In this document: in pieces, positions 1,326-56,719 of the stretch | How positions within the stretch are numbered: the stretch's first letter is position 1 | Layout: each line of letters starts with the position of its first letter | Assembly: GCA_036785375.1 (NCBI GenBank) | Contig: JAWMAR010000023.1 | Span: 682,001 to 746,000, forward strand | DNA length: 64,000 bases | Source: Leucoraja ocellata | Lineage: Eukaryota | Direction: 5' to 3' | Made by a program: the position numbers and the translations under genes | The notes under the pieces: model-generated | The model's database searches: none | What the model saw: only the letters and a program-made list of their open reading frames with translations | What the model was told of the DNA's origin: nothing

Positions 1326-2612
1326 CATAAATTACAATAATGGTGCGGCAGGGAGTGGTGGAGGCTACAGCTCTCTCTCTCTCTCCCATAAAACCAGATA
1401 CCGATGGATTTTTGAAAAGAAAAATGGGAACCTGACTTAGCAACGGATTAGCCGTGATGTCATTGAATAGTTCAGCAGGCTAAATGATCTTCCACTGCTG
1501 CCTGTTACCCAAGGATAATGAGTGGTTTTGGCAGTGAAGAATAAACCCCAGCTTTACACGGCCCAGACGCCTACATTAATTCAGGTCAACATTCATGAAT
1601 GGTTGATTTTGCACTTCTGTCCAAGGTTTAAAGTTACATGTCTATCTTGTTAATAAATCTCTTTAACATACTTTCAATTTGACCTTTGAAGTCTACAATC
1701 AATAACTAGAATTTAAATGTGATTTATTTGCAAATAAATCAGCACTGCTAAAAAAATCCATCAGGTTTCTCATTTAAAAATCACAAATTGTGTTGAATCC
1801 TCTCAAAATCAGTTAACCCGTAACTAACTGTTACTGATGAATGCTACCAGGACTTTATGTATATTTACAGATCAAATGTCTTTAGGAAAATCTCATGGGA
1901 TTGCCAGAGGAATCTTTTTGATAACAAATGCCCCTGATGGGAACGTTGGCTAAGTTTGTGGTTACAAAGTACAGCTATCGATGTCGATTCCACATGTTGA
2001 TCTTGCCAGCAAACCAGGTTAAATCCTGATCATGTTTCTAAGATAATGGTAAAACATGTTTGTAAAGGTTGGATGGACATTGAAGTTTCTCAGTTGGAAT
2101 TCATTCTGTTTTCAGGAACCCAGGAATCCTTCCCTTTGGATCTTTAGTAAGTTCCTTGTTTTCAGTCTTTCTGCTTCAGTTGTTGTTCCATTCTCCGTCA
2201 CTGTTGAAGCTGCAAGTGTCATAGAACCAGATGCCTTTGTAACCCGTCGGAGCTGGGGAGGGGGTTGGTCGGGAAGGCCCGAAGAAAGGTCCTGACCTGA
2301 AACAAAGTCAACCCATTACCCTCCACAGATGCTGCCCTGGCAACTGAGTTCCTCCAGCTCAAGATTGCATCACCTGCAGTCTCCTGTGAAGCTGGATGGA
2401 TTGGTCACTGTGTGCGACTGAAAGTACATGGTGCTGATAAGTTCATACGTTCTAGGAGCAGGCCCATCAAGTCTACTCCGCCATTCAATCATGGCTGAAC
2501 TATCTTTCCCTTTCAACCCCATTCTCCTGCCTCCTCCCCATAACCCCTTCGCTCTTATGGTACTAATCTACTTGCCCTACGCAGTATTTCAGAAACAAAG
2601 CCCCAGAACTTT

Positions 2613-2900
2613 AGGGTGGCACAGTGGTAGAGTTACTGCCTTACAGCGCTTGCAGCGCCAGAGACCCGGGTTCAATCCTGACTACGGGTTCTGTCTGTAC
2701 AGAGTTTGCATGTTCTCTCCATGACCTGCGTGGGTTTTCTCCGAGATCTTCGGTTTCCTCCCACACTCTAAAGACGTACAGGAATGTAGGTTAATTGGCT
2801 TGGCGATTAACGTGGAAAAATTGTCCCGAGTGTGTGTAGGATTGTGTTAATGTGCGAGGATTGCTGGTCGGTGTGGACTGTATCTCTAAACTAAACTAAA
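2613..2900 (+). mobile_element. tRNA-derived V-SINE (HE1-like)
   Basis: GGTTCAATCC B box, V-domain GAGTTTGCATGTTCTC...GGTTTCCTCCCACACT and CTAAA tail. Confidence 0.85.
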
Positions 2901-55500: not shown

Positions 55501-56719
55501 TCGTGGGGTCTGGGTGGTGGTGGTGGGCAAACACATCGCAATCACCCTTCAGGCTGGTCTGGGCAATGCCACCTGTCGGGGAGAAGGCCATGAGCTGCAG
55601 TGACAATGATGAACAAGCGAAACAACACAAGACAAATGAAACACGCAAGGTAACAAGATGAATACACACGGAAACAGACGGATGATTAATAGTTACACTG
55701 AACAAACATTATCACATTTCAATTAGATTCAAGGAGGAAGACCTTAGTCTTGCAAGCTCTCTGTGGCAACCTTGCACAAAGTCGCCTCTTCCTGCCAGCA
55801 CCAAGTTCCTCTAACTCCGTTAGAGTGCTCTTCCACTTCCTTCCTTTCACAGTGGCAGCTATTCATTCCCTCGCAACAGCTCCCAGTCAATGTATTGTAA
55901 TGTGGACTGAAGAAGGGTCCAGACACAAAATGTCACTTCTCCCAATTACTCCAGAGATCCTGCCTGACCCGCTAAGTTACTCCAGCATTTTGTGTCTATC
56001 TTTGGTATAAACCGGCATCTGCAGTTCCATTTCATTACTGACGTGTGGTATATCTCTTTCACAAGCGGCTGCAAGGATTGCATCTGCTGGGCTACATGTT
56101 GAGAGCTGCGAGAATTTGCAGTACTTCAACAAGTCCAATGAGGCCGAAGATGCCACCTTCAGCACTGTGTTACAGAGGGGAACCCAAACATTTTTGTTTT
56201 GTGTTCGTGAGATGGAAAGCGGCAAGTCAAATCGTAGATGCCAATTTTATTTCAAAGTCAAACGGTTGAATTATTAAGTGACGCCATTCGAGAGATAAGA
56301 ACCACTACTCCCCGACCATAATTACTGAACGTTTCTTCTTTGTTTTGTTCCTGTTGCTAAAAACAAATCTGGCAATTGAACGCTGTGAGCCAACCATTAT
56401 TTGGCATTGCACTGGGATTATTCTCCAGGAACGAGACCAGTCGTGGTGAAATGGAAGAGCTGGTGAGAGCAGCACCGAGACGGAGGGCTGAGGAAGGATT
56501 AGATCCTCACGTGCTTCGTTCTGGACGAGGCAGAACCAACAGAGCATACTTCATTAGCTGACAATTTAAAACATGTTAACTTACAACACATCCAGGAAAT
56601 TAGAGGCGATTGCCTGGAGAGTAAACATTTTATAAAACTAATTTTGATGAGATGTTTATACCTGGGATGAATGCGCAGATGAGATTCAGATTGGCAAGCA
56701 GTAGCAATTGAACCTTCAT
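28306..56719 (-). CDS. ALPL: Alkaline phosphatase, tissue-nonspecific type (GPI-anchored), 11 coding exons, 527 aa
   Basis: Spliced by hand: 56719-56662, 52446-52327, 50926-50811, 48714-48540, 46147-45972, 42958-42818, 39245-39176, 38064-37930, 35858-35667, 31020-30901, 28586-28306, totalling 1584 nt. The frame is open and all introns are GT-AG. Motifs present: FLGDG, active-site [49 protein letters not shown] and RHETH resemble TNAP rather than intestinal AP. Orthology versus a paralog is not proven without phylogeny. Confidence 0.93.
28602..28985. repeat. (GGGA)n tetranucleotide repeat and polypurine tract at the last ALPL acceptor
   Basis: About 19 GGGA-type units at 28602-28678, followed by an A/G-rich low-complexity tract. 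Confidence 0.95.
30476..30787 (-). mobile_element. V-SINE (HE1-like)
   Basis: Full-length reverse copy. Confidence 0.88.
30901..31020 (-). CDS. ALPL: ALPL coding exon 10 ([24 protein letters not shown]...), 120 nt
   Basis: Crown-domain motif [14 protein letters not shown] donor. Confidence 0.96.
31090..31285. mobile_element. Truncated Harbinger MITE (right TIR only), CpG-rich
   Basis: Ends AAGTGGGACAGGCCCT plus TTA, then the remainder of a V-SINE (31289-31563); left TIR absent. Confidence 0.7.
31795..32382 (+). mobile_element. Penelope-like element 3' fragment (GIY-YIG endonuclease plus pLTR)
   Basis: Encodes [16 protein letters not shown]...HFN...EEQHLIF; followed by the hammerhead-bearing terminal repeat. 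Confidence 0.9.
32245..32285 (+). ncRNA. Minimal hammerhead ribozyme motif (Penelope-associated)
   Basis: CUGAAGA core, extra A, stem II GGGU-CUCG-ACCC, GAAAC, then a palindromic ACGU stem III and a GUC cleavage triplet. Confidence 0.7.
33230..33362 (+). mobile_element. Penelope pLTR-derived short element, subfamily B, with intact hammerhead motif
   Basis: CTGAAGA-A-GGGT-TTCG-GCCC-GAAACGTT at 33234-33261. Confidence 0.75.
35667..35858 (-). CDS. ALPL: ALPL coding exon 9 (GRIDHGHH...TADHSH...NNIFG), 192 nt
   Basis: Zn-ligand motifs IDHGHH and ADHSH; G|GTGAGT donor. Confidence 0.97.
37930..38064 (-). CDS. ALPL: ALPL coding exon 8 ([10 protein letters not shown]...KGFFLLVEG), 135 nt
   Basis: DPSLxEM and [11 protein letters not shown] motifs; AG/GT flanks. 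Confidence 0.96.
38296..38548. mobile_element. hAT-type MITE
   Basis: TIR CAAGGGTTCCCAACCT / AGGTTGGGAACTCCTG, subterminal GGGGTAAA repeats and a degenerate 8-bp TSD GGATAGGG/GGATGGAG. Confidence 0.75.
39176..39245 (-). CDS. ALPL: ALPL coding exon 7 ([24 protein letters not shown]), 70 nt
   Basis: TTTCTTTAG acceptor and G|GTAAGT donor; matches the 70-nt ALPL exon. Too short to appear in the ORF track. Confidence 0.93.
39970..41060 (+). mobile_element. 5'-truncated L2-clade LINE with uninterrupted RT C-terminal ORF
   Basis: [44 protein letters not shown] and [11 protein letters not shown] motifs; AATAAA and (ATT)n tail. Confidence 0.92.
41061..41680 (+). mobile_element. Old Penelope-like RT/linker fragment
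   Basis: Decayed PTDxHxYxxYTSSH...IPYSQ-like frame leading into a YIG remnant. Confidence 0.65.
42818..42958 (-). CDS. ALPL: ALPL coding exon 6 ([12 protein letters not shown]...KKDK), 141 nt
   Basis: [10 protein letters not shown] and RLDG motifs; AG/GT flanks, phase 0-0. Confidence 0.95.
43497..43760. repeat. 36-bp minisatellite, about 7 copies
   Basis: Unit GGGGTGAACAATACAGAGGCAGGGGTACGTGGTGCA with variants. Confidence 0.92.
44566..45165 (-). mobile_element. Penelope-like element 3' fragment (GIY-YIG plus pLTR)
   Basis: Encodes [17 protein letters not shown]...[19 protein letters not shown]. Confidence 0.9.
45972..46147 (-). CDS. ALPL: ALPL coding exon 5 ([17 protein letters not shown]...NIPGIE), 176 nt
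   Basis: HATPS and NRDWY motifs; GAG|GTAAGT donor. Confidence 0.97.
48540..48714 (-). CDS. ALPL: ALPL coding exon 4 ([23 protein letters not shown]...WAEDAG), 175 nt, catalytic Ser
   Basis: AP active-site signature [12 protein letters not shown] flanks. Confidence 0.97.
49265..49582 (+). mobile_element. V-SINE (HE1-like)
   Basis: Head, V-domain and CTAAA tail. Confidence 0.85.
50811..50926 (-). CDS. ALPL: ALPL coding exon 3 ([15 protein letters not shown]...HVALSK), 116 nt
   Basis: TTTTCAG acceptor and AAG|GTGGCT donor; conserved AP sequence. Confidence 0.95.
52058..52313 (+). mobile_element. Rex1/Babar-like LINE 3' end with poly-C run
   Basis: Same 3' sequence as 10866-11150 (CAGATCAATTTCCCTCCT.GGATAAATAAA and an ATCGT tail). 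Confidence 0.7.
52327..52446 (-). CDS. ALPL: ALPL coding exon 2 (VHEMNPTFW...VILFLGDG), 120 nt
   Basis: AG/GT flanks; contains the GDG metal-ligand motif; size matches the vertebrate ALPL exon. Confidence 0.95.
56662..56719 (-). CDS. ALPL: ALPL first coding exon (signal peptide [19 protein letters not shown])
   Basis: ATG followed by a hydrophobic 19 aa ending FIP. The phase-1 donor CAG|GTATAA joins the next exon in frame. The likely acceptor TTTATTATTTAG| makes the exon start at 56797. Confidence 0.85.

Follow-up and report, generated by a model that had tools for sequence, protein, structure and literature searches.

What gives rise to the short repeat, headed by a small hammerhead motif, that is scattered through a 64,000-nucleotide stretch of the Leucoraja ocellata genome (GenBank assembly GCA_036785375.1, contig JAWMAR010000023.1, positions 682,001 to 746,000 of the forward strand; hereafter the window)? 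An earlier note on this DNA had described a highly amplified, Penelope-derived family of ribozyme-bearing repeats and had taken it to be non-autonomous and retrozyme-like. The analysis presented here identifies the repeat as the 3' pseudo-long terminal repeat (pLTR) of an endonuclease-bearing (EN+) Penelope-like element (PLE), which on its sequence relationships is probably of the Neptune type. We consider it likely that each copy is a dead, one-off insertion made by a full-length element and not a self-propagating retrozyme.

The window was searched by BLAST using five seeds taken from the window itself, and the 46 segments obtained were grouped as 26 insertion loci with a total length of approximately 5.6 kb; small fragments at 39637-39659 and 39782-39819 were excluded from every locus count. 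A 27-mer hammerhead pattern gave 16 matches at three or fewer mismatches in the window and none in 100 shuffles. The repeat noticed earlier is therefore real, and the copies placed at 32251, 11640, 13351, 39482, 48369, 33234, 10119 and 26931 were all found at those positions. Both of the subfamilies proposed, A and B, were recovered, but the division into two is incomplete, as an intermediate copy (33827) and older copies (2279, 10288, 26931, 55907) are also present. At least four different sequences lie upstream of the repeat among the loci. High amplification was evident from the copies in the window and from contigs of four public DNA runs (X1, X2, X5 and X11, from four coded organisms), of which 204,000-231,000 per run were placed on the family. 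Scanning of viral contigs with the pattern gave no matches. Clustering of the loci was considered and dropped as a finding (7 gaps under 400 bp versus 4.1 expected, p=0.08).

With respect to the origin of the repeat, four of the 26 loci carry the end of a GIY-YIG coding region directly 5' of it, with a pyrimidine-rich untranslated region (UTR) between coding end and repeat. Searching with batoid proteins by tblastn produced matches at 3378-3488 (-), 31812-32063 (+) and 44854-45164 (-), so the GIY-YIG fragments previously placed near 3083, 31795 and 44566 are genuine; they are 58-78% identical to the GIY-YIG region of the batoid proteins P0001-P0004. The fourth copy linked to an open reading frame (ORF), at 33708-33975 (-), retains the last ORF codons only. 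When the fragment at 31809-32063 was used as query, five proteins were found among 66 candidates, four of them named (Hypanus, Leucoraja, Mobula) with 66-73% identity and the fifth a 159-aa match. The window fragments by themselves gave no Pfam match, and P0001-P0004 gave weak matches to PF01541 (GIY-YIG) which fell under the curated cut-off. A reverse transcriptase (RT)-thumb region, a CX2-5CxxC linker and a GIY-YIG end were found in both P0001 and P0003, and with P0003 as query 63 longer relatives of 746-1657 aa were obtained, most with an RT domain. The linker, a mark of the Neptune and Nematis clades (PMC8557442), is present in 65 of 68 fetched relatives including the batoid P0001, P0003 and P0004; the pLTR-linked window copies are truncated downstream of it, and it is known from relatives only. 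EN+ PLEs encode a telomerase-like RT in one ORF with the endonuclease; the relatives carry RT and GIY-YIG, and the truncated window copies are without RT. Because GIY-YIG fragments adjoin the repeat and the relatives, of which the best named are ray and skate Penelope-like proteins, carry RT, linker and GIY-YIG, the repeat is read as the 3' pLTR of an EN+ PLE, and its derivation from Penelope stands. No match to any pLTR copy was obtained when the 63 long relatives were used in tblastn to look for an N-terminal coding region in the pLTR. An ATG at about +48 of the unit is open through the tail in subfamily B and meets a stop in subfamily A.

The arrangement of the loci, a feature absent from the earlier note, is that of element insertions. 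Fourteen of the 26 loci are head-to-head inverted pairs, and every junction is different. Counted from C3 of the hammerhead core, the unit has two 3' ends approximately 35 nt apart, at about +94 (tail-less) and about +130 (tailed). Exactly one arm carried the tail in all 13 scorable pairs (p=2.4e-4), on the left in 7 of them and on the right in 6; tail scoring left out the old pair at 26853. Target site duplications (TSDs) of 11-19 bp, better than random placements, were observed at 14 of the 26 loci (10/14 pairs and 4/12 solos). The loci, and the hammerhead of the best-preserved long copy, are as follows, the pairs being listed without a strand.

2279-2385, +: old solo copy, core broken (BLAST)
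3082-3488, -: long subfamily A copy with GIY-YIG C-terminus at 3378-3488, UTR and tail-less pLTR; intact core at 3177 with one stem II mismatch (tblastn)
3594-3808: head-to-head pair, subfamily B, right-arm tail, perfect 17-bp TSD
3887-4086: head-to-head pair, subfamily A, left-arm tail, junction in stem II, TSD not significant
7627-7752: head-to-head pair whose left arm lacks the tail and whose right arm is almost nothing but tail; 12-bp TSD
10112-10210, +: tail-less solo pLTR of subfamily B; the core at 10119 is intact and the 14-bp TSD perfect
10248-10375, +: older solo copy preceded by a pyrimidine tract; broken core; 5' end placed approximately
11511-11733: head-to-head pair, subfamily A, left-arm tail, 15-bp TSD; core at 11640 kept, ACGU palindrome lost
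12016-12177, +: solo subfamily A copy, about 31 nt of UTR, tail, 14-bp TSD, core A9C
13290-13479, +: solo subfamily A copy that has both UTR and tail; the core at 13351 is intact and the 5' end approximate
14989-15235: head-to-head pair of subfamily A; the left arm carries the tail and an internal duplication of 52 bp; TSD present; core C3A
15263-15386: head-to-head pair, subfamily B, both arms beginning 3' of the hammerhead, left-arm tail, TSD
24718-24805, +: solo tail-less subfamily A pLTR from +6 (5' half of core absent), 11-bp TSD
26554-26728: older head-to-head pair, right-arm tail, 15-bp TSD
26853-27025: old head-to-head pair, CTGATGA core at 26931; tail and TSD not scorable
29592-29791: head-to-head pair, subfamily A, left-arm tail, 15-bp TSD, core at 29699
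31800-32383, +: best-preserved long copy, subfamily A, with 5'-truncated GIY-YIG end (31809-32063), pyrimidine-rich 3' UTR, pLTR (32248-32345) and tail (32346-32383)
32251-32278, +: minimal type I hammerhead (motif anatomy)
33232-33362, +: tailed solo pLTR of subfamily B; the core at 33234 is intact, with a UUCG loop and U.G pairs; a TSD was not found
33708-33975, -: intermediate-subfamily copy with last ORF codons, its own UTR, pLTR and tail; TSD-flanked; core U4C
39336-39613: head-to-head pair, subfamily A, left arm with 52-bp duplication, right-arm tail; cores at 39472 (-, broken) and 39482 (+)
42302-42502: head-to-head pair, subfamily A, left-arm tail, 14-bp TSD
44570-45164, -: long subfamily A copy with frameshifted GIY-YIG end (44854-45164), UTR and tail-less pLTR; core U4C (tblastn)
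47018-47190: head-to-head pair with a tail-less left arm; two tail pieces of 42 bp make up the right arm; 13-bp TSD
48256-48488: head-to-head pair, both arms from -5, right-arm tail
49755-49928: head-to-head pair, subfamily A, left-arm tail, 19-bp TSD, core A9U
55907-56036, +: old solo copy, tail, core G12A

An adjacent inverted, 5'-truncated copy together with a one-sided tail of 30-40 bp has been described as the insertion footprint of EN+ PLEs (PMC8557442; PMC3846280), and the layout of the window loci matches this footprint of autonomous EN+ PLE insertion. As in the Neptune/Nematis-type elements treated in those papers, there is a C-terminal GIY-YIG domain, a linker (in the nearest relatives) and heavy 5' truncation, as well as the head-to-head inverted pLTR, the 30-40 bp one-sided tail and TSDs. 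The window family differs from them in that most insertions are reduced to the pLTR alone and no microsatellite targeting was seen, and its TSDs of 11-19 bp compare with 8-10 bp in rotifer PLEs (PMC3846280). That truncated PLEs leave dispersed minimal hammerheads, and that inverted pLTRs and tails occur, is already known; the window family adds a member. Hosts named in PMC4209133 include fish, coelacanth, frog and reptiles, and no shark or ray was seen among them. No description of the family from a shark or ray was found in the papers searched; Dfam and Repbase, like the supplements to PMC4209133 and to the bioRxiv preprint cited below, lay outside that search and may already contain it. On the left arms of two unrelated loci (15015-15058 and 39336-39391) there is an internal duplication of 52 bp of the central pLTR, which may be a subfamily mark or the trace of a re-copied stub. 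An older decayed PLE fragment at 41066-41681 (+), with RT thumb, linker region and endonuclease start at 31-41% identity to the relatives, is interrupted by another repeat and has no pLTR after it.

The 5' end of each locus, taken as the furthest-upstream element base, was assigned by hand from local alignments. Fourteen of the 26 loci start at -7 to +2 relative to C3, five start within the unit, seven extend further upstream and none starts at the hammerhead cut site; the earlier statement that the repeat begins at the CTGAAGA core therefore holds for the first group and not for the other two. Expressed for the short loci alone, 14 of 19 start at -7 to +2. The inverted arrangement was confined to short loci, with 14/19 of these paired versus 0/7 of the upstream-reaching loci (p=0.0012). 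In contigs of the four DNA runs the commonest loose ends were at 32248 (-3) and at 32345 (the tail-less end), and the top joints among those listed (15 of 898) were strand reversals at 32248-32251. This 5' boundary may mark the start of the template transcript.

The boundary might instead reflect a stall of the RT at the hammerhead or its hairpin, or a splice site just upstream, with the stalled cDNA folding back to produce the inverted arm. All seven upstream-reaching copies have a tract of 77-86% pyrimidine ending in CAG (5), TAG (1) or CGG (1) directly before the base preceding C3, which resembles a 3' splice site. The intron of D. virilis Penelope, placed 46 bp after the start site in PMC2377424, ends at helix I according to PMC4209133, and self-priming has been proposed for PLE palindromes (PMC3846280). 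A rod in which the core pairs with +28 to +39 is also predicted in both subfamilies. We nevertheless regard a stall or splice site as quite improbable, since simple fold-back by itself leaves unexplained both the one-arm tail rule, with tails on the left as well as the right, and the long copies that have no inverted arm. Moreover, no GT..AG skip into 32250 was seen among the joints listed (15 of 56 from four probable RNA runs and 15 of 898 from the four DNA runs), a weak negative. A candidate intron between the region of the ORF stop and the CAG that precedes the core was not supported, no matching joint being present among those listed. Splicing to this CAG would not lengthen helix I in any case, because both forms end in the same bases.

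A biochemically studied element for comparison is PAc, a Poseidon element of Anolis carolinensis (Frangieh et al. 2024, PMC11167929). The PAc protein was reported to extend both target strands, two internal RT start sites delimit the tail, uncleaved RNA is the main substrate, and the hammerhead cleaves only with protein. PAc and the window family have in common two 3' end classes which delimit a tail, a hammerhead in the pLTR, and insertions that do not start at the cut site; PAc differs in belonging to the Penelope/Poseidon clade and in having an ORF which starts at stem II.

In the mechanism that we favour, the endonuclease of the element makes a staggered cut in the target, as the TSDs show. 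RT would then initiate inside the RNA at either of two sites approximately 35 nt apart, producing the tail-less or the tailed end; both end classes are seen in the window, and the two-site initiation is carried over from the in vitro work on PAc. Initiation in the 5' pLTR of an uncleaved transcript would be followed by run-off at the RNA 5' end after approximately 100-135 nt, just upstream of the core. Run-off from the end of an uncleaved RNA is proposed because the 5' boundary is sharp at -7 to +2 and no copy begins at the cut site. Extension would often occur at both cut target ends, with a different start site used for each, and head-to-head joining of the resulting short cDNAs would give fold-back stubs with a tail on one arm only. 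Initiation in the 3' pLTR would generate the rarer long, 5'-truncated copies, which are without an inverted arm here. The hammerhead is a standard minimal PLE motif, whose cutting would need a dimer and probably the help of protein; most copies are broken or masked in hairpins.

A number of observations weigh against this mechanism. The 5' ends were assigned by hand, and at palindromic junctions their positions are uncertain by a few bases. At 32248 the loose ends overstate the boundary, because true 5' ends are mixed there with upstream sequence of other subfamilies. In each run 44-51 contigs join 32345 back to 32248 with unknown letters between, and these could be tandem pLTR units. Loci 14989 and 39336 share the 52-bp duplication, which could point to a stub-derived template. 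Finally, no full-length copy of the family has been seen, and a metagenome scan with P0003 returned 29 loci of distant PLE relatives with no DNA match to the family. One of the metagenome contigs (L013), carrying an RT fragment of a PLE from a distant organism, has a minimal-hammerhead-like motif with a 7-bp stem II near 1615 (-).

The sharp boundary and the shared duplication would also fit a dedicated non-autonomous family resembling short interspersed elements (SINEs), in which short RNAs from solo pLTRs or fold-back stubs are copied in trans by Penelope protein. Summed contig depth in run X1, which is not copy number, was 4.8-23.9 million in pLTR bins and 0.09-1.6 million in ORF bins, and in a rotifer PLE pLTR sequences were enough by themselves to be mobilised in trans (PMC3846280). 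The two accounts are only partly separable, because a short RNA transcribed from a solo pLTR would yield the same stub as a full-length RNA does from its 5' end. Against copying in trans, no two of the 14 fold-back junctions are alike, and the hairpins therefore do not descend from a single master. ORF sequence is absent from 22 of the 26 loci, yet these share the pLTR with the ORF-bearing copies and are about equally diverged from the subfamily A majority. We therefore judge a SINE-like family to be unlikely, if somewhat less so than a stall.

A more specific form of the favoured mechanism, which we put forward tentatively and consider rather unlikely, is that the stubs are the PLE equivalent of integrated strong-stop DNA. 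Here a protein dimer would hold uncleaved RNA starting approximately 3 nt before the hammerhead, possibly as two RNAs paired through the ACGU palindrome; both cut target ends would be primed from the two internal start sites and the products linked head to head; the hammerhead would be active enough for sense-strand intact copies to have been purged from host introns. If this were true, read-outs of a PLE insertion intermediate would be preserved by the many thousands in the genomes of sharks and rays, together with a genome-wide selection test of cutting in cells.

Whether the hammerhead could act was considered from its anatomy and predicted folding. The motif at 32251-32278 consists of a type I core CUGAAGA, an unpaired A at 9.1, the G10.1-C11.1 pair, a 4-bp stem II with a CUCG loop, GAAA and a palindromic ACGU, with cleavage predicted after C17 at 32278. 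The core, the unpaired 9.1 base, G10.1-C11.1 and the palindromic 15.2-16.2 positions were all present at 32251, 33234, 10119, 13351 and 3177, which agrees with the earlier description of a minimal hammerhead with palindromic stem III. Stem II covariation between subfamilies A and B was also as described (CUCG versus UUCG loop, U-A versus U.G pair). An Rfam scan of the window returned no hammerhead family at E up to 10, and the hammerhead call accordingly rests on motif anatomy; Rfam miRNA matches were under their gathering scores, the top ones lying on fold-back hairpins. Minimal PLE hammerheads as described in PMC4209133 share the type I core, the palindromic 15.2-16.2 in place of helix III, the unpaired base between 9 and 10.1 and G10.1-C11.1, as well as the pLTR location and the occurrence mostly as dispersed single motifs with some close opposite-strand pairs. 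Helix II has 4 bp here versus 7-8 bp in S. mansoni, and helix I has 2 bp as in the D. virilis variant, compared with 4-5 bp in S. mansoni (PMC4209133).

Predicted folding disfavours the active form. Helix I has 2 bp in both subfamilies (U-A or U.G, then G-C) with a predicted pairing probability of 0.005 or less, and in five copies folded from -3 the predicted probability of stem II did not exceed 0.28. In the favoured rod, predicted for both subfamilies, the core and the 5' side of stem II pair with bases 3' of the cut. Six paired loci were predicted to fold into long hairpins of -129 to -177 kcal/mol which bury the motif. The motif is indeed present in many copies, as the earlier note had it, but of 23 arms spanning the core region only 11 keep all positions of the catalytic core (CUGANGA, GAAA, UH). 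With respect to conservation, 7 of 182 core positions versus 71 of 872 flank positions were changed in 23 subfamily A arms (p=0.043, and p=0.12 with anchor positions), a comparison biased by local-alignment trimming and by subfamily variation in the flank. Core versus flank conservation, which the earlier note gave as a refuting condition, is not diagnostic of activity, because dead copies decay neutrally; neither this comparison nor that of subfamilies A and B given below decides whether the hammerhead is active. A U4C core change, a T-to-C change that creates a CpG, is common to the copies at 2279, 33827 and 44664, which belong to three subfamilies.

These results bear on the view of the earlier note, that the family spreads through self-cleaved circular RNA and rolling-circle copying. 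By definition, retrozymes are arranged in tandem and every unit has its own hammerhead (bioRxiv 2026.07.22.740005; PMC7761336). The window units are like animal non-LTR retrozymes (PMC7761336; bioRxiv 10.64898/2026.07.22.740005) in being short and non-coding, in having a type I hammerhead and in their kinship to PLE pLTRs. The core is also kept across subfamilies, the A and B majorities differing at 0 of 11 core positions versus 13 of 67 flank positions (p=0.19), and non-LTR retrozymes have been reported in one chondrichthyan (bioRxiv 2026.07.22.740005). The rare go-back joints from 32345 to 32248 described above would fit such spread as well, as would joints from 32281 to 32248 found in 7-13 contigs per run in X1, X2, X5 and X11. 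The latter repeat the hammerhead core directly, over 34 nt, and may represent a natural tandem dimer. However, retrozymes are head-to-tail repeats yielding circular RNAs, and the window units occur singly or head to head, are flanked by TSDs and have no boundary at the cut site. No head-to-tail tandem array was present in the window, no copy in it started or ended at the cut site, and in none did the tail lead on into another hammerhead, the arrangement expected of a circular template. The pLTR is moreover shared with ORF-bearing, 5'-truncated copies. In addition to the short helix I, the predicted double-hammerhead fold of the 32251 motif was -6.1 kcal/mol versus -21.1 kcal/mol for the best alternative dimer, and only one of nine predicted Xenopus retrozyme dimers was reported to cleave (bioRxiv 2026.07.22.740005). 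Because retrozymes are tandem repeats and the window is without such an array, the label is not supported for this family, and spread by circular RNA appears very unlikely, the least probable of the explanations weighed here. Tandem derivatives may exist elsewhere in such genomes, because go-back joints occur in the runs and chondrichthyan retrozymes have been reported.

The host context of the loci provided a separate comparison. Coding exons of an alkaline phosphatase gene were found near 52450-52340, 50930, 48700, 42900, 38000, 35750 and 28500, and the gene extends on the minus strand from at least 52450 to 28309.

28309-52450, -: alkaline phosphatase gene, host context (Pfam matches at five exons, motif matches at two more)

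The last exon ends in a hydrophobic stretch, which we take to be typical of a glycosylphosphatidylinositol-anchor signal. Eleven loci, from 29592 to 49928, lie in introns of this gene. Inside the gene, intact cores were found on 0 of 5 sense arms versus 6 of 7 antisense arms (p=0.015, unchanged without the truncated arm at 47102), a post hoc comparison from one window and few copies in which two of the five sense arms are in hairpins that should mask the core anyway. Outside the gene, 5 of 11 arms had an intact core. We hypothesize that the sense-strand depletion of intact cores reflects cleavage in vivo; if it holds genome-wide, it would be indirect in vivo evidence of hammerhead activity. 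PMC11167929 and PMC7761336 describe as open the questions of how the inverted ends of PLEs arise and whether their minimal hammerheads cut in vivo. An abundant family with two sharp 3' ends, a sharp 5' boundary and a strict one-tail rule makes both questions testable by counting in one assembly.

The intact cores of subfamilies A and B at 32251 and 33234 (+), both with ACGU, are 983 bp apart on the same strand; a transcript running through both, antisense to the host gene, might in principle allow them to pair as a mixed dimer. At 43471-43756, in an intron of the alkaline phosphatase gene, a 36-bp unit is repeated 8 times as a minisatellite. Elsewhere in the window, a 5-bp microsatellite of approximately 40 copies occupies 880-1081. 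Stop-free stretches of approximately 332 codons were seen at 39880-40875 (+), which gave a weak RVT_1 match and resembles long interspersed elements, and at 18491-19489 (-), which gave no Pfam match. A second abundant dispersed family is present at 1174, 2615, 4344, 16241, 25517, 30599, 31260, 49274, 51564, 60070, 63861 and other positions, and presumably resembles the HE1/V-SINE elements of cartilaginous fish.

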